Shown one piece after another: positions 32,008-44,433 of a stretch of 64,000 nucleotides of DNA. The position numbers and the translations under genes were made by a program. Numbering within the stretch: position 1 is the stretch's first letter; each line of letters begins with the position of its first letter. Source of the DNA: an uncultured Verrucomicrobiae bacterium (GTDB taxonomy: Bacteria > Verrucomicrobiota > Verrucomicrobiia > Limisphaerales > UBA11358); contig CAVQPQ010000008.1 in assembly GCA_963714695.1 (NCBI GenBank), forward strand, positions 180,656 to 244,655, read 5' to 3'. The notes under the pieces were generated by a model, which was given only the letters and a program-made list of their open reading frames with translations, did no database searches and was not told where the DNA came from.

Positions 32008-32181
32008 AATTGCGATTTGCCAAGGCCCCCGGATTTTACTACGGTTTTCCCCGTGCCAGTTCAACCGAACACAACGACCACATTTTAGCGTTCATTCCCG
32101 AAAATGGAATGGACGCCAACGCCTCTGACAGACTGTCCGGGGCGTTTTTTGTTTGGTGAACACAACCGCAGATAAACAAAG

Positions 32182-32613
32182 ATGAACGCAGATGATTTTC
32201 CAGACTTGCACGCCGGAAAGGGTGACGCCTACCCGTGCAAAGAGGAGACTCGGGCAATTATTGGCTGCGCGTTTGAGGTGCTGAACGAGCTGGGGCACGG
32301 ACTCAATGAAAAGCTTTATGAAAATTCGCTGGTGGTCGAATTCAAGCGGCGGGGCATGGCCTTTGACCAGCAATGCCGATTCGATGTGCTCTATAAAGGC
32401 GAGCCTGTTGGCGAGTTTATTCCGGACTTGATCGCTTGTGGCAAAGTCGTCGTGGACGCCAAGACCATTGAGTGCATCACCGACCATGAACGCGGGCAGA
32501 TGTTGAATTACCTTCGCATTACTGGACTGCCGGTCGGATTGATTCTGAATTTCAAGCACGCCCGTCTGGAATGGGAAAGAATTGCATTAACAACCGCAGA
32601 TAAACGCAGATGA
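32182..32613 (+). CDS. GxxExxY protein (PD-(D/E)XK nuclease superfamily paralog family)
   Basis: IIGCAFEVLNELGHGLNEKLYENSLVVEF contains the family G-x-x-E-x-x-Y motif. DLIACGKVVVDAKT and GLILNF follow. Start and stop codons both lie in CGCAGATGAA decamer repeats. Confidence 0.8.
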   Translation: MNADDFPDLHAGKGDAYPCKEETRAIIGCAFEVLNELGHGLNEKLYENSLVVEFKRRGMAFDQQCRFDVLYKGEPVGEFIPDLIACGKVVVDAKTIECITDHERGQMLNYLRITGLPVGLILNFKHARLEWERIALTTADKRR

Positions 32614-32738
32614 ACGCAGATAAAAATCAAATATCATGGCAGACAATGCGCAAAAAGCCGGGAGTCCTTCGGTGCCTTCCTCAAAGCGGCGGCTCCGCCG
32701 CCGAAAGAATCTGCGTTCATCTGCGTCCATCTGCGGTT
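32592..32738. repeat. 30-bp inverted repeat built from CGCAGAT(A/G)AA decamers
   Basis: AACCGCAGATAAACGCAGATGAACGCAGAT (32592-32621) versus ATCTGCGTTCATCTGCGTCCATCTGCGGTT (32709-32738). 27/30 complementary. Confidence 0.85.
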
Positions 32739-32755
32739 AAACTCTTTTGAAATTT

Positions 32756-34811
32756 ATGGAAAACGAACGTAAAACTCTGGATGACCGCCAGAAAATGACC
32801 GAGCTGGAGCGCCTCCGGCACTCCGCCGCCCACGTCATGGCCACCGCCATCGTCCGGCTCTGGCCCGACGCCCAGTTCGCCTCCGGCCCGGCGGTCGAAA
32901 ACGGCTTTTACTACGACGTTCGAACTGTCGCACCGCATCTCGCCGGAAGATTTCCCGAAGATCGAGGAGGAGATGAAAAAGGAAATCAAGGCGAACCACA
33001 CTTTCGAGAAAATCACCGTCACACGCGAGCAGGCGCTGGAAGATTCACAAAAAGGCCGGCTCGGCGCGCTCGGCGAGCGTCCGGGCAACCCGAGCAAATT
33101 CAAAATCGGCAACCTGGAGGACATTCCCGCAGGCGAGCCGATCACGTATTACAAGAGCGGCGATTTCATTGACCTATGCGCCGGGCCGCACGTGATGCGC
33201 ACCGGCAACATCGGCGCGTTCCGGCTCACCACCGTGGCCAGCGCCTATTACAAGGGCGACGAGAAAAACCCGCAGCTCCAGCGCATCTACGGCACCGCGT
33301 TCAAGAACAAGACGCAGCTTGAAGAGTATTTCAAGATGATCGAAGAGGCCAAGCGCCGCGACCATCGCAAGATCGGCGCGGAGATGGGGTTGTTCGCGCT
33401 GGACGCCGAATACGTCGGGCCGGGCATGCCGCTGTGGCTGCCGAAGGGCACGGCAATTGTCGAGGAACTGGAGAAGCTGGCCAAGGAAACCGAATTCCAG
33501 GCCGGTTACGTGCGCGTCCGCACACCGCATCTGGCCAGGGAGAAAATGTATAAAACTTCCGGCCACCTGCCGTATTACGCAGAGTCAATGTTTCCGCCAA
33601 TGAAAATTCATGAAGGCGGTCATGCCGCATCTGGTTGGGTTAAGAACCCGGAGATGATGGAAGAAATGTTAGCCCAGGATGCGCCCATCTATAGGCAGAT
33701 TTTGGAACGAATCGCTGGCCAATCGCTTGAAAAGGCTAGTGCTGAGCTTAGGGCTACTGCCAAACAGCAGGGCGTTCTTGAAAGGCTTGATAAGCAGGCG
33801 TATTGGTGTTTTCTCGCTTACGCTATGCCCGAGATTGCAAATCCCAGCGAGCGCTACTACCTCAAAGCCATGAACTGCCCGCATCATCACCGCATTTTTG
33901 CGGCGGAGCCGCGCAGTTACCGCGATTTGCCGTTGCGCCTCGCCGAGTACGGCACCTGCTATCGCTACGAGCAATCGGGCGAATTGTTCGGTCTCATGCG
34001 CGTCCGCTCGCTCAACATGAACGACGCGCACATCTATTGCACGCCGGAGCAGTTCGCCGCCGAGTTCAACGCGGTGAACGAGATGTATCTGAAATATTTC
34101 AAGATTTTTGGCATCGAAAAATACGTGATGCGCTTCAGCACCTCGGCGCCGGAAGGCATGGGCAAGAAATACGTCAACGAACCGGAACTCTGGAAGCAAA
34201 CCGAGGACATGGTCCGCAAGGTGTTGATTGATTCCAAGATCAACTACGTGGAAGTGGCGAACGAGGCGGCGTTCTACGGCCCGAAGATTGACGTGCAGGT
34301 CTGGAGCGTCATCGGCCGCGAATTCACGCTGGCGACCAACCAGGTGGACTTTGCCGTGCCCAAACGTTTCGGCCTGGTCTATCGCGACAAGGACAACACG
34401 GACAAGACGCCGTTGTGCATCCATCGCGCGCCGCTGGGCACGCACGAGCGGTTCATCGGCTTTCTCATCGAGCATTACGCCGGCAACTTCCCGCTCTGGC
34501 TCGCGCCCGAGCAGGTGCGCGTGCTGACCATCGGCGAGGAGGAACCGCTGGTGAACTACGCCAAGGCCATCGTGCAGGAACTCCGCGCCAGCTTCGTCCG
34601 CGTGGAAGCCGATTTTTCATCGAACAAGATCAACGGCAAAATCCAGGACGCCGAGAAGGCGAAAGTCCACACGATGCTCGTCATCGGCGGCCGCGACCTG
34701 GACGCCGGCAACGTGAGCGTGCGTCTGCACGGCAAAGGCAACGTCGGGGCCAAGCCGAAGAACGAAGTGATCGCGGACATTTTGCTGGCCATCAAGGAGC
34801 GCAAAGCATAA
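32756..34811 (+). CDS. thrS: threonine--tRNA ligase (no TGS domain), frame interrupted by a 1-nt insertion near 32918
   Basis: ORF 32747..33172 carries HSAAHVMA...ENGFYYD. ORF 32973..34811, in the next frame, continues [23 protein letters not shown] upstream of its first ATG. It then has DLCAGPH, MNCPHH, class-II motifs and the anticodon-binding domain. Confidence 0.9.
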
Positions 34812-34851
34812 ATGGATTGTCACCGCACGAAATCGGAAAACGCGGCGGCCA

Positions 34852-36522
34852 ATGTTCAAATGTTCGGAACCATCATCGGAAAGTGTCCCGGCTGCCGGGA
34901 CCACCCGGGCCATTTTTTTTCTGCTCCTGATTCTGACCGTGGTCACCGCGATCCGGATCCGCCTCTTGAACATGCCTTTGGAGCGTGACGAAGGGGAGTA
35001 CGCTTACGCGGGGCAATTGTTGCTCCAAGATGTCTCTCCATATAAAGCGGCTTACAACGTCACGTTGAAATTGCCCGGCACGTGTGTGGCGTATGCGCTC
35101 ATCATGGCGGTGTTCGGCCAGACGACCGCCGCCCTTCATGCGGCGGTGATTTTGGCCAATCTGGCCACGGCGGTGCTGGTCTTTGTCATGGCGCGGCGCA
35201 TCTACGGGGATGCCGCCGGGGTGGTCGCCGCCGGCACGTATGCCCTGCTCTCCATCGTGCCGGAAACCTTTGGGCTGGCCGCTCACGCCACACACTTTGT
35301 CATGTTGCCGGCGCTCGCGGGCGTCGTCCTGCTCCAAAACCTGGATGATCGCACTTCGGCCGCGCGGATTTTTTCCGCCGGACTGCTCTTCGGGCTGGCG
35401 GTCCTGATGAAACAAACAGGCGCGGCGTTCGGACTTTTTGCGGCCGGTTGGATTTTGTGGTGCGAATTTTCGTCCGATCAAAAGCATTGGCGGCGGCTGG
35501 CCGCACGCCTGGCTTGGCTGGCCTTGGGCGGGTTGCTCCCTATCGTCCTGACGTGTTTCATAATTGTCCGCGCCGGTGATTTTCATCAATTTTGGCTGTG
35601 GACATTTGAATACGCCCATGAACATGCCTCCGTCATCCCGTTTGCCCGGGGGATCACAACCCTGGTCAGTGTGGCCATCCCGCTGTTAAAAGCCGCTCCG
35701 GGATTGTGGGGCCTGGCGGTATTGGGCCTTGTTCTGCTCCCTGGCGAACCGTCCCTGCGACACTGGCGGGCTTTCGTTGCAGGCTTAACGGTTTTTTCGT
35801 GTGTTGCGGTCTGGCCCGGATGGCGCGGGCATTACTTTATTCAATTGCTTCCCGCAGCGGGCTTGCTGGCGGCGGGAACATTCCGCGCGGTTGTCGGCTT
35901 CCTGTCCCGATCCAATTTTTCGTTGCCATCAACGGCACTGCCCGCCCTGGTTTTTGGAGTGGCCGCCGCCAGTTTGCTGATTCAATCGAGCAACATTTAC
36001 TTTCTACTTGCTCCCGCGCAGGCGTGCCGCGTGATTTATGGCTCAAATCCATTTCCCGAGTCAGTGGAAATTGGCCGGTATTTGGCGTCCCACAGTGGTC
36101 CCGGGGCGCGGATTGCGGTGCTGGGATCCGAACCACAGATATACTTTTACAGCCATCGTCGTTCGGCCACCGGATATATTTGCACCTATCCCCTGATGGA
36201 GCCGCAGCCCCACGCCGTTGAAATGCAACAGGAGATGATCCGGGAAATTGAGAAGAACAACCCAGATTATGTGGTGTTTGTTCATGTCGCATTTTCCTGG
36301 TTGCAGTATTCAGATTCCAATCCGTTGATCTTTGACTGGTTTGGAAGGTATCAACGGGAGAATCTTCAAATGGCTGGCTTGGTGGAAATTCCATCCGACG
36401 GCCCGACGCGGTACCGCTGGTTTGACCAGCCGGAAACCAACGCGCAAACGTCGGCAAAATCATGGCTGGCGGTTTTCAAGCGCCGGGTTGACAGTGGGCA
36501 GATCCCCGTAAAAGCCAAATAA
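34852..36522 (+). CDS. GT-C-fold membrane glycosyltransferase-like protein (ArnT/PMT-like)
   Basis: ERDEGEYAYAGQLLL after the first TM, ~11 TM segments, soluble C-terminal domain. Confidence 0.6.
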   Translation: MFKCSEPSSESVPAAGTTRAIFFLLLILTVVTAIRIRLLNMPLERDEGEYAYAGQLLLQDVSPYKAAYNVTLKLPGTCVAYALIMAVFGQTTAALHAAVILANLATAVLVFVMARRIYGDAAGVVAAGTYALLSIVPETFGLAAHATHFVMLPALAGVVLLQNLDDRTSAARIFSAGLLFGLAVLMKQTGAAFGLFAAGWILWCEFSSDQKHWRRLAARLAWLALGGLLPIVLTCFIIVRAGDFHQFWLWTFEYAHEHASVIPFARGITTLVSVAIPLLKAAPGLWGLAVLGLVLLPGEPSLRHWRAFVAGLTVFSCVAVWPGWRGHYFIQLLPAAGLLAAGTFRAVVGFLSRSNFSLPSTALPALVFGVAAASLLIQSSNIYFLLAPAQACRVIYGSNPFPESVEIGRYLASHSGPGARIAVLGSEPQIYFYSHRRSATGYICTYPLMEPQPHAVEMQQEMIREIEKNNPDYVVFVHVAFSWLQYSDSNPLIFDWFGRYQRENLQMAGLVEIPSDGPTRYRWFDQPETNAQTSAKSWLAVFKRRVDSGQIPVKAK

Positions 36523-41926: not shown

Positions 41927-42649
41927 CTAACGCATCGCCGCATAGACGCGATGCACGTCGTCGTGATCGTCGAGGGCGTTCAGGAAATCCGCGACGTCCT
42001 TGCGCGCGGTCTCGCTGAGTTCGGGAAAATTCTTGGCGAGATAGCGCATCTCGGCCGAGATGACGTTCCAGCCAGCGGCCTTGAGCGCCTTGGAAACGTG
42101 GTCAAGGTCCTTGATTTCCGTCAGAAAACGCGCGCCCTTCTGGCCGGCGGGAACTTCCTCGGCTTCCAGCGGCTCGATTTCCTGCGCGCCCGCTTCAATG
42201 GCATCGCCTTCGGCATCGCGATTCGGATCGGGATGCGTGGCTTCGACGACTCCGAGGTGATTGAAGAAAAACGCGACGCTGCCCGGCTGGCCGAGTGAGC
42301 CGGTCTTGAAGATGTTGCGGATTTCCGGCGCGGTGCGGTTGCGGCTGTCGGTGAGGCACTCGATGATGACCGGCACCTTGTGCGGCGCGAAACCTTCGTA
42401 GGTGACCAGTTCGTAATTGACCTTTTCCGTGTCAAGTCCGGCGCCCTTCCGGATGGCGCGCTCGATGGTGTCCCGATAGACGGACGCTTTCTTGGCTTTT
42501 TCGACGGCGGCGAAGAGGCGCGGATTGAGGTCGGGGTCCGGTCCGCCGAGTTTGGCCGCGACCATGATTTCGCGGACCAGCTTGGCGGTCATCTGGCCTT
42601 TTTTCTGCGCGTTGATTTCGCGCCCGGATTGTTTCCACTGTGCGCCCAT
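41927..42649 (-). CDS. YebC/PmpR-family transcriptional regulator
   Basis: MGAQWKQSGREINAQKKGQMTAKLVREIMVAAKLGGPDPDLNPRL, the canonical YebC N-terminus. Confidence 0.88.
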   Translation of the reverse strand: MGAQWKQSGREINAQKKGQMTAKLVREIMVAAKLGGPDPDLNPRLFAAVEKAKKASVYRDTIERAIRKGAGLDTEKVNYELVTYEGFAPHKVPVIIECLTDSRNRTAPEIRNIFKTGSLGQPGSVAFFFNHLGVVEATHPDPNRDAEGDAIEAGAQEIEPLEAEEVPAGQKGARFLTEIKDLDHVSKALKAAGWNVISAEMRYLAKNFPELSETARKDVADFLNALDDHDDVHRVYAAMR

Positions 42650-42750
42650 CGGCTGGCCAGTGTGGAAAAGCCGGCGCGCCGGTGCAATGTAAATTGCGTG
42701 CAAAGCCGCCGGTTTTCTGGTTAACTGCCGGAACTCTGAACCGATGCCTT

Positions 42751-44433
42751 ATGGACGACACGAATTCACTCATCGAACAGCGCAAGGCCAAGCTCGCCGC
42801 GTTGCGCGCAAAGGGCTTTGACCCGTTCAAAAACAAGTTCAGGCCCGGCGAAACCTGCCAGCAGGCGCGTGAACATTATACCGAAGGTCGCGAAGTCGCG
42901 CTCGCCGGCCGCATCACCGCGCACCGCGACATGGGCAAATCCATGTTCCTCGACATCCGCGACCAGAGCGGCCGGATGCAGATTTACGCCCAGAAAAACG
43001 TCCTTGGTGACGAGCAGTTTGCCATTTTCCAGCATCTGGATCTCGCGGATTTCATCGGCGTGCGCGGTACGCAGTTCACCACCAAGACCAACGAAAAGTC
43101 TGTCAAGATCACCGGCTTCACCATCCTGGCCAAGGCGCTGCGCCCGCCGCCGGAAAAGTGGCACGGTCTCGCCGACACGGAAATCCGCTACCGCCAGCGC
43201 TATCTCGATTTGATGGCGAACCCGGACGTGAAGGAACTGTTCTTGATGCGCAGCGAAATCATCCGTGAAATCCGGAATTTCCTGCACGCGCACGGCTATG
43301 TGGAGGTCGAGACACCGATGATGCAGGCGATTCCCGGCGGCGCGGCGGCGCAACCGTTCGTCACCAAGCACAACGCGCTGGGCTGCAATTTTTATCTCCG
43401 CATCGCACTGGAGCTTTATCTCAAGCGCCTGCTGGTCGGCGGCGTGGACAAAGTGTTCGAGCTTGGCCGCAACTTCCGCAACGAGGGCCTCTCGCGCAAA
43501 CACAATCCCGAATTCACCATGCTCGAAGCGTATGAGGCCTACGGTGATTACGAGAGCATGATGGAACTCGTCGAAGAAATGATTTGCCACGTTGCACAAA
43601 AGGTCTTAGGAAAAACCAAAATCTACCGTCCGCGTACGGAATATTTTAAACACCAACTTAATTTTATTCACGGTGTCGCTTCTGCAAATCTTCCAACTGA
43701 TCAAACTGGAGAATTCTTGGCGGCTATCAAGGAGTGCCTTGAGCTTCAGGGTTCTCAAGAGACTGAACTAATTGCAGCGAAAGCAAATGAAGTTGCTCAG
43801 AAACTTGCTGCCGAGTTCCAAGCGGGAAGCGACCATTCTAAAATAGCGACAGATATTTTGAAATGGATCACTCCGTATCTTGAGAGGCAAGAAATTAACC
43901 TCGAACGTCCTTGGAAACGCGCTAAATATAAAGATTTAGTCCGCGAAAAAGCCGGCGTGGATTGGTTTGAAGTTTTTCCCGCCGAACGCCGCCAGCGCGC
44001 CCACGATCTCGGCGCGGAAATTGGCAAGGAATACGAGGACTTTGAAGTCACCGGCGCGGTGTTCGAGAAATTGATCGAGCCGACGCTGATTCAGCCGACG
44101 TTCGTTACGCATCTGCCGAAGGAACTCGTGCCGCTGGCCAAGGTCTCGCCCGACGATCCGACGACAGTGGAGGTCTTCGAGTGCTGCATCAACGGCCAGG
44201 AAATCGCGCCGGCCTACACCGAGCAGAACGACCCGATTGAACAGCGTGAACGGCTGGAGCACCAGGCCGGCGGTGAGCAGCAGAAGCTGGACGAGGATTT
44301 TCTCGTCGCGCTGGAGCACGGCATGCCGCCCGCCGGCGGCATGGGCATGGGCATTGACCGCCTGTGCATGATGCTGCTTGGCCAGGAAAGCATCCGCGAC
44401 GTGATTTTGTTTCCGCAGTTGAAGCCGAAATAG
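42751..44433 (+). CDS. lysS: lysine--tRNA ligase (class IIb) with an ~89-codon AT-rich insert
   Basis: OB-fold N-domain. Motif 1 around VEVETPMM, motif 2 FRNEGLSRKHNPEFTMLE, motif 3 GMGIDRLCMML. Start trimmed to the ATG at 42751 (MDDTNSLIEQRKAKL). Confidence 0.92.
   Translation: MDDTNSLIEQRKAKLAALRAKGFDPFKNKFRPGETCQQAREHYTEGREVALAGRITAHRDMGKSMFLDIRDQSGRMQIYAQKNVLGDEQFAIFQHLDLADFIGVRGTQFTTKTNEKSVKITGFTILAKALRPPPEKWHGLADTEIRYRQRYLDLMANPDVKELFLMRSEIIREIRNFLHAHGYVEVETPMMQAIPGGAAAQPFVTKHNALGCNFYLRIALELYLKRLLVGGVDKVFELGRNFRNEGLSRKHNPEFTMLEAYEAYGDYESMMELVEEMICHVAQKVLGKTKIYRPRTEYFKHQLNFIHGVASANLPTDQTGEFLAAIKECLELQGSQETELIAAKANEVAQKLAAEFQAGSDHSKIATDILKWITPYLERQEINLERPWKRAKYKDLVREKAGVDWFEVFPAERRQRAHDLGAEIGKEYEDFEVTGAVFEKLIEPTLIQPTFVTHLPKELVPLAKVSPDDPTTVEVFECCINGQEIAPAYTEQNDPIEQRERLEHQAGGEQQKLDEDFLVALEHGMPPAGGMGMGIDRLCMMLLGQESIRDVILFPQLKPK

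Follow-up and report, generated by a model that had tools for sequence, protein, structure and literature searches.

The 64,000-nucleotide stretch of DNA analysed here (the window; contig CAVQPQ010000008.1 of an uncultured Verrucomicrobiae bacterium) carries thrS, the gene for threonyl-tRNA synthetase (ThrRS), and within the part of thrS that specifies the catalytic core lies an additional segment of 83 codons. This segment probably represents one of many alleles of an insertion cassette that is hypervariable and exchangeable, sits at the tip of a β-hairpin of the synthetase, is replaced wholesale and is dispensable. The cassette is translated, all 94 distinct alleles found at this site being in frame, and is predicted to be all-helical, with the canonical core of the enzyme left intact. 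Indeed, the site accepts 13–127 unrelated residues, a near-canonical loop or a complete break of the chain.

The segment follows directly upon ..SMFPPM, and translation of 33603-33851 on the + strand yields exactly the 83-residue peptide quoted in the original prediction. That these residues are extra relative to canonical ThrRS, as was also proposed, is borne out by the spacing between the MF and NCP motifs, which is 92 residues here as compared with a median of 14 (13–17 in 38 of 55) among diverse ThrRS cluster representatives. In an alignment with Staphylococcus aureus ThrRS (1nyq), residues 1–232 of the query correspond to residues 108–325 and residues 310–626 to residues 326–640; the second block follows directly on the first in the solved chain, which leaves 77 residues of the query unmatched. 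The same alignment in two stretches, breaking at around residues 232 and 310, is obtained for nearly all of the 150 best representatives from 1.8 billion proteins. Pfam returns no match within the 83-residue segment.

The DNA of the insert is indeed AT-richer than its surroundings, with a GC content of 0.50 and a GC content at third codon positions (GC3) of 0.49, compared with 0.59 and 0.82, respectively, for the rest of thrS. The median GC3 of the long open reading frames (ORFs) of the genome is 0.70, and only 17 of 945 high-GC3 ORFs contain an 83-codon run as low in GC3 as the insert. The differing codon choice noted earlier is likewise evident: the preferred codons for Leu and Arg (CTG, CTC, CGC and CGG) account for 1 of 11 uses in the insert versus 63 of 76 in the remainder of the gene (Fisher p = 2.7e-6), and GCT is used six times in the insert and not once elsewhere in thrS. 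The internal direct repeat that had been described does not stand, the longest exact repeat being of 7 nucleotides, which is equalled or beaten in 774 of 1000 shuffles and thus at the level of chance; a repeat search likewise reported no direct repeat family.

The thrS gene occupies positions 32756-34811 of the + strand and is the only thrS in this genome of 5.16 Mb and 56.7% GC. The reading frame is not uninterrupted in the assembly, where codons 1–54 and the remaining 630 are placed in different frames by a shift at 32918-32921. The frameshift is likely to be an assembly error, since a near-identical ThrRS of 684 residues (P0004), with three residue differences of the G-to-A type, is intact in another assembly. 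The product displays the Pfam domain set of a bacterial class IIa threonyl-tRNA synthetase, namely tRNA_SAD (E = 2.5e-15), the tRNA-synt_2b class II core (1.6e-40) and the HGTP anticodon-binding domain (8e-13). In addition, the Cys/His/His zinc ligands of the active site (C320, H371 and H502) are invariant across 78 relatives, and, from the alignment and general knowledge of ThrRS, we take them to be the counterparts of E. coli C334, H385 and H511. By its domains, ligands and fold, the gene product is a member of the bacterial ThrRS family.

An AlphaFold2 (AF2) model of the main frame, calculated from a diverse alignment of 106 rows, has a mean predicted local distance difference test score (pLDDT) of 91.8 and a predicted template modelling score of 0.85. 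A first run with only 78 close relatives produced a poor core (pLDDT 67), with helices at the insert there too. Residues 147–630 of the model superpose on E. coli ThrRS (8wih_B) over 396 of 399 residues with a root-mean-square deviation of 1.3 Å (Z 53); the superposition covers the catalytic and anticodon-binding domains of the E. coli enzyme and leaves over approximately 80 residues of the cassette, such that the modelled enzyme appears fully canonical apart from these extra residues. The cassette is helical in the model, as had been anticipated, and is predicted to form an excursion from the tip of the β-hairpin that precedes the zinc-binding Cys320, between motifs 1 and 2 of the class II core. 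We suggest that the cassette is passive, with its helices packing on themselves outside the core and the two strands of the hairpin re-joining, which would leave catalysis unaffected and make the cassette dispensable.

Relatives were surveyed for the insert in 40 genomes, of Limisphaerales/Pedosphaera-like Verrucomicrobiota, and in 80 further species representatives, all of them metagenome-assembled. Something is present at the site in every thrS sampled, with inserts of 13–127 residues (median 74). Their sequences have no stops and abound in E, L, A, K and R; the 94 distinct alleles fall into 65 BLASTP families, 51 of which are singletons; the 500 flanking residues compared are typically 70–90% identical between relatives. 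Near-canonical loops of 13 and 23 residues are found in two relatives (G014 and G034, respectively), in keeping with a dispensable cassette, and the first and last residues of the inserts retain a weak consensus (xLxE ... xER). Beyond this order, the canonical break alone is seen in most genomes of the class and phylum, in agreement with a lineage-specific insert. The insertion site is thus old and order-wide, and the genome of the window carries one allele of a cassette-like hypervariable site.

Elsewhere in the ThrRS family, a distant homologue of unknown lineage (P0187; 720 residues, 39% identical) has its own helical insert of about 77 residues at the same hairpin, and 20–45 extra residues occur there in a few other ThrRS representatives. 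The hairpin is a recurrent insertion point across ThrRS.

Comparison of closely related genes suggests that alleles are replaced as blocks, rather than by gradual divergence in place. In the pair L053/L051, the thrS flanks are 93.8% and 95.5% identical in DNA and an adjoining 3.65-kb block is 91.5% identical, whereas the inserts, of 207 and 267 nucleotides, have zero similarity. The borders are sharp, with identity ending just after the MFPPM codons and restarting at the YYLK codons. Similar flanks with unrelated inserts are also observed in the pairs L058/L068, L012/L054, L004/L005 and L009/L098. For alleles common to two genomes, nucleotide divergence in most pairs does not exceed that at the fourfold sites of the flanks (L018/L100 being an exception), and the closest such pairs differ at few amino acids, 1 of 61 in L092/L094 and 7 of 81 in L006/L109. 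These comparisons accordingly show no hypermutation and some purifying selection inside an allele.

The same comparisons bear on a rival account, whereby one ancestral insertion has drifted rapidly in place beyond alignability and low GC3 reflects mutational equilibrium. We consider this very unlikely. It would fit the faster evolution of shared inserts relative to their flanks, as in the pair L067/L073, where 10 of 62 insert residues and 3 of 500 flank residues have changed, the 52% identity between the insert of the window and that of P0005, the weak consensus kept at the insert ends, and a low GC3 in 87 of 88 genomes. However, it does not fit the dissimilar inserts of different length that are found in genes whose fourfold sites and neighbouring DNA are only ~5–15% apart, nor the shared alleles, whose divergence in most pairs is no faster than neutral, and as a sole explanation it is contradicted by L053/L051 and the pairs like it. 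With respect to the surroundings of thrS in the same two genomes (~91% identical), we note that the 3.65-kb block (L053 3083-6736, L051 9274-12929) precedes thrS in one and follows it in inverted orientation in the other; the region around thrS is prone to rearrangement.

Base composition separates the alleles by class. The single widely shared allele family, whose 10 members are scattered on the tree, has a GC3 of 0.80 compared with 0.85 in the flanks, whereas 44 singleton alleles have a mean GC3 of 0.48 compared with 0.80 in the flanks, and all recently replaced alleles have a GC content of 0.40–0.46 within genes of 0.57–0.60. Since the widely shared family has a flank-like GC3, low GC3 marks private or newly arrived alleles and is no property of the site itself, which also speaks against the equilibrium proposed under in-place divergence. 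The allele of the window belongs to this private or newly arrived, low-GC3 class. The original prediction had regarded the segment as foreign or recently evolved, and composition by allele class is the strongest support for this wording, the AT-rich DNA and unadapted codons being shared with private and recently replaced alleles. Other findings go against that reading or beyond it: no donor was found, the allele is not brand new, and the insertion site is old and order-wide.

Under the favoured reading of an exchangeable cassette, alleles would be swapped whole by homologous recombination, with crossovers in the near-invariant codons that border the cassette. Few stretches of the gene vary as little across the order as these codons do; as the only long runs of identity between a diverged donor and recipient, they would focus crossovers there and leave no trace. 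Newly arrived alleles would be AT-rich with unadapted codons, and long-resident alleles would come to resemble the flanks.

The allele of the window is rare. A near-length search of 5.8 billion proteins recovered it in P0004 and, at ~52% identity, in two metagenomic ThrRS, P0005 carrying an insert 52% identical to that of the window. In view of these two metagenomic ThrRS, the allele is not brand new and has been resident for some time. It is absent from 400 genomes of the order, which give chance-level matches only (E about 0.003), and the ESM Atlas provided no usable match. The cassette DNA is single-copy in its own genome at the level of both DNA and six-frame translation, and this genome contains neither silent cassettes nor additional copies of the conserved flanks.

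Several points weigh against wholesale exchange of a passive cassette. Recombination breakpoints are invisible, the flanks being nearly invariant, and chimeric assembly within a conserved gene is possible for any single pair, given that the genomes are metagenome-assembled. No donor or second copy was found, and arrival from outside is deduced from composition and from other allele pairs. In the two ThrRS that share the allele at 52% identity the flanks appear, by eye, to be much more conserved, and with this identity the low GC3 could be explained equally well by relaxed selection towards an AT-rich equilibrium. Finally, the view of the cassette as passive and harmless would rest on tolerance rather than on geometry.

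The tolerance of the site extends to a complete break of the gene. In the window, thrS is continuous at the site, whereas in six relatives (G016, G002, G019, G006, G005 and G029) it is fragmented by inserted DNA. The thrS of G016, with flanks 94% and 88% identical to those of the window, is among the closest sampled and groups with the genome of the window on the flank tree; it consists of two ORFs broken at the same point with 4.7 kb in between. Its N-terminal half runs through MFPPM into a 33-residue tail and a stop, and its C-terminal half begins at a separate ATG, with a head of about 45 residues ahead of YYLKAMNC. The other five genes are split in like manner, and no second thrS is present in the split genomes. 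A search with the tail region returned 268 protein clusters, and 109 of the 120 listed, hence at least 109 clusters in all, are N-terminal halves of ~312–335 residues with a strongly conserved tail (consensus EMDEHRxxRxxLEARIAELEKQLxDYAKK, heptad-like), some of them on contigs of up to 4.6 Mb.

The heads are conserved across the split loci examined. Tail and head align collinearly with either end of the continuous G027 insert (E = 5e-7 and 3e-3) and of the inserts of other relatives, so that the split form is homologous to one family of continuous cassettes. On a FastTree phylogeny of the thrS flanks that includes three split genes, these occupy three separate places, one of them within a tight clade that also contains two different continuous alleles. 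The natural reading of these sequences is that the split form represents a helical hairpin cut at its loop, with the two arms now holding the halves together. The split genes would accordingly be the extreme form of the site, in which one arm of the hairpin has become a coiled-coil tail at the C-terminus of the first half and the other a helical head at the N-terminus of the second, joining the halves, and the gap gathers restriction-modification and toxin-antitoxin genes. Cargo families overall include N6_Mtase/Eco57I, Methylase_S and an AccI endonuclease, all of restriction-modification type, as well as toxin-antitoxin genes, and differ from gap to gap (Table 1).

A parallel is seen in the same window in lysS (42640-44433, + strand), the gene for lysyl-tRNA synthetase (LysRS), which has an AT-rich insert of ~90 residues between motifs 2 and 3 (43624-43890). 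At this position, 40 relatives have either a loop of ~10 residues or unrelated inserts of 47–130 residues; cassettes of this kind thus occur beyond ThrRS.

The main rival to homologous exchange is a dedicated mobile mechanism: the inserts and the tail-cargo-head units would be selfish in-frame cassettes that target the hairpin with codon precision, survive by keeping the frame open or by providing zipper arms, and leave continuous inserts as fused scars. Such an origin would account for the codon-exact, sharp borders within near-identical genes, for homologous tails and heads at three separate places of the thrS tree with different cargo each time, for an orphan second copy of the tail within the cargo of G016, for the AT-richness of young alleles and some cargo, for the collinearity of the G027 insert with tail plus head, and for the variable insert of the same kind in LysRS; it also has a precedent in the nrdA gene of phage Aeh1, which is split by mobE and has assembly tails (PMC3045599). 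Nevertheless, we judge it unlikely. According to Pfam, no transposase, integrase or homing endonuclease recurs in the cargo of the split loci, where no HNH or GIY-YIG gene was seen and several ORFs are without a Pfam match, and neither terminal repeats nor a hairpin are present. The allele of the window has no other copy in its own genome, resembles no known tail or head, and is carried by none of the shorter proteins searched. Moreover, six-frame peptides of all inserts had no match in the fetched loci outside thrS inserts, be it cargo or neighbouring DNA, in what is a weak test covering five cargo regions only.

We regard it as unlikely that the hairpin is, beyond this, a landing pad for mobile cassettes that split the synthetase gene and bring their own zipper arms, re-forming the enzyme without splicing. 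In that case the gap could not be carelessly deleted and would offer a safe harbour to restriction-modification and toxin-antitoxin genes, continuous inserts would be in-frame scars of lost cargo, and the LysRS of the same genome would have been hit likewise.

Several relatives carry orphan 3′ fragments of thrS beyond the end of the intact gene, with up to seven in G003, and orphan 3′ fragments of lysS are also found (Table 1). Such fragments are expected if elements integrate into thrS or lysS bringing a replacement end. Beside its full-length thrS, G027 (L037; G027:C208, 1444-4287) has a separate ORF of 323 residues that comprises only the part after the cassette, with the class II core and anticodon domain, and adjoins an AAA_15/AAA_21 ATPase gene and a DUF3226 gene, which together look like a defence pair.

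The nature of the cargo also touches on the idea that the cassette is an adaptive variable surface, diversified by selection, for instance for escape from a toxin, phage factor or inhibitor that docks on ThrRS, or for binding of a partner specific to the lineage. The allele-like diversity, combined with purifying selection within alleles, the gathering of defence-type genes at the same site in split forms, and the retention of a cassette in nearly every genome, though near-canonical loops are viable, would be in keeping with such a role. Yet no motif or fold is conserved across the alleles, the cassette contains no known domain, the site has repeatedly reverted to a near-canonical loop, and there is no candidate partner or antagonist. 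This idea is speculation, and we consider it very unlikely.

Known classes of intervening element were tried and rejected. The insert of the window begins with K-I-H and ends with P-S-E, followed by Arg, and so lacks the Cys/Ser/Ala start, His-Asn end and Cys/Ser/Thr at +1 of an intein; moreover, it has 83 residues as compared with ~130 or more for a Hint domain, has no Pfam match and is all-helical in the model. A self-splicing intron or other known RNA is rejected in that 32400-35000 gives no Rfam match at E <= 0.1 and all 94 alleles are open in frame. An element resembling a Rickettsia palindromic element or a miniature inverted-repeat transposable element is rejected by the single copy, the lack of terminal inverted repeats and an RNA fold with z = 0.21 relative to shuffles. 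The target of a diversity-generating retroelement is rejected likewise, as there is no template repeat (no second copy of the segment in the genome) and the alleles differ in length.

The features of thrS and of the related loci are collected in Table 1. At its N-terminus, the ThrRS of this lineage begins near residue 54 of S. aureus ThrRS and has no TGS (N1) domain according to Pfam (32756-32917, P0004). Directly upstream of thrS in the window lies a PD-(D/E)XK gene (PDDEXK_3, GxxExxY-type; 32166-32738) bordered by repeats of the CGCAGAT(A/G)AA type, an inverted copy of which precedes thrS; at this position, G016 has a different spacer filled with repeats. In seven records (L051, L071, L079, L083, L085, L098 and L105), thrS is clearly verrucomicrobial and the titles name other groups (Bifidobacteriaceae, Klebsiella, Saccharimonadales, Binatia, Methylomirabilota and Limnocylindrales); these contigs probably represent mislabelled bins.

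Table 1. Features of thrS in the window, and cargo and orphan fragments at related loci.
Feature	Position	Strand	Content or basis
thrS 5′ part, 54 codons (MENERK...GFYYD)	32756..32917	+	Homologous to the start of intact P0004
Single surplus base (GAC-GTT-c-GAA) shifting the thrS frame in the assembly	32918..32921	+	G016 and P0004, without the base, read GFYY(D/N)VELSH
thrS main frame (P0002), 630 codons and stop	32919..34811	+	tRNA_SAD, class II core, anticodon-binding domain (Pfam; PDB sequence matches)
β-hairpin strand 1, residues 228-230 (M-K-I), just past MFPP	33600..33608	+	DSSP on AF2 model
Cassette, 83 codons	33603..33851	+	Residues 233-309 (33615-33845) without counterpart in canonical ThrRS
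Five predicted cassette helices, residues 236-241, 244-252, 255-265, 270-283, 287-307	33624..33839	+	AF2, pLDDT 62-76
β-hairpin strand 2, residues 311-315 (RYYLK), leading into the active site	33849..33863	+	DSSP on AF2 model
Cys320 codon in MNCPHH, zinc-ligand Cys	33876..33878	+	Invariant in 78 relatives; presumed equivalent of E. coli Cys334 (alignment and general knowledge)
G016 gap cargo			PRiA4_ORF3, MNT/HEPN pair, LamG protein (Pfam)
G002 gap cargo			Fused methylase/HSDR_N gene and specificity subunit (Pfam)
G019 gap cargo			Methylase, AccI-type endonuclease, HTH gene (Pfam)
G006 gap cargo			SEC-C protein, PRiA4_ORF3 (Pfam)
G005 gap cargo			PAS/GAF kinase, DUF433/DUF5615 pair (Pfam)
Orphan thrS 3′ fragments	G003:C9:114594-128279; G027:C208:1301-4263; G028:C58; G039:C141		
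Orphan lysS 3′ fragments	G011:C252:10404-10769; G039:C269:8532-8879; G013:C29; G005:C182		

Few proteins are known to be as conserved as synthetase cores, and it is unexpected that one hairpin of ThrRS should carry a different, wholesale-exchanged peptide in almost every species of these soil Verrucomicrobia. Equally unexpected are fresh alleles with the composition of foreign DNA, a gene cut at the same point in hundreds of lineages known from metagenomes, with conserved coiled-coil ends, and defence and addiction genes settled inside the cut. The literature search turned up no description of this ThrRS insertion or of a split bacterial ThrRS. A lineage-specific insertion in a synthetase is of an already known kind; what is new is the cassette-like replacement of alleles, the link between allele sharing and codon usage, and the fact that the site coincides with a natural, widespread division of the catalytic core where defence and addiction genes gather. 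In practical terms, the hairpin represents a fully permissive site for engineered insertions or split versions of ThrRS, and the split form explains the ~320-residue genes annotated as 'threonine--tRNA ligase' in Verrucomicrobia. Caution is due where thrS, a common phylogenetic marker, is used, as it contains a recombining block. The split genes also provide a natural system for asking whether interaction tails neutralise the fragmentation of an essential cellular gene, the one demonstration to date being that for a phage ribonucleotide reductase (PMC3045599). Should the unlikely landing-pad reading prove true, it would give mobile DNA a further means of residing inside essential cellular genes, the third after introns and inteins.

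Insertion domains peculiar to individual aminoacyl-tRNA synthetases are exemplified by the INS domain of bacterial prolyl-tRNA synthetase (ProRS), located between motifs 2 and 3. Like INS, the ThrRS cassette is an in-frame module in a surface loop of the class II core that leaves the core fold and catalytic residues intact. Unlike INS, it is located between motifs 1 and 2 at the tip of a hairpin and has no conserved sequence or fold; rather, its 94 alleles represent 65 unrelated families that are swapped wholesale. Rickettsia palindromic elements, which are in-frame selfish repeats within protein genes, similarly add a peptide that is tolerated at a permissive surface site of an essential protein, but the ThrRS cassette is single-copy, has no palindrome and folds as RNA no better than shuffles. 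The target-recognition domains of HsdS specificity subunits are variable and are exchanged by recombination in conserved flanks. The ThrRS cassette resembles them in that unrelated variable blocks lie between conserved sequences usable as homology arms, whereas the HsdS blocks serve in DNA recognition and the cassette has no known function.

The split form invites comparison with the naturally split synthetases, namely the α/β LeuRS of Aquifex aeolicus, the AlaRS of Nanoarchaeum equitans and the ThrRS-cat/ThrRS-ed pair of crenarchaea, which are likewise in two pieces that must associate. These splits are, however, fixed per lineage, and some are located at domain borders (ThrRS-cat/ThrRS-ed), whereas in thrS the cut falls within the catalytic core at the position of a hypervariable cassette, and its presence varies among close relatives. 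In Aeromonas phage Aeh1, nrdA is split by the endonuclease gene mobE, and activity depends on the unique C- and N-terminal tails that the insertion has created (Crona et al. 2011, PMC3045599). The thrS genes of the split relatives appear alike in having two ORFs with foreign genes in between and a split-specific tail and head, whereas the thrS of the window is continuous and the cargo identified by Pfam in its split relatives comprises restriction-modification, toxin-antitoxin and other genes, with no homing endonuclease recognised among them. The nrdA gene of Aeh1 is the closest experimental precedent for the split form of thrS.

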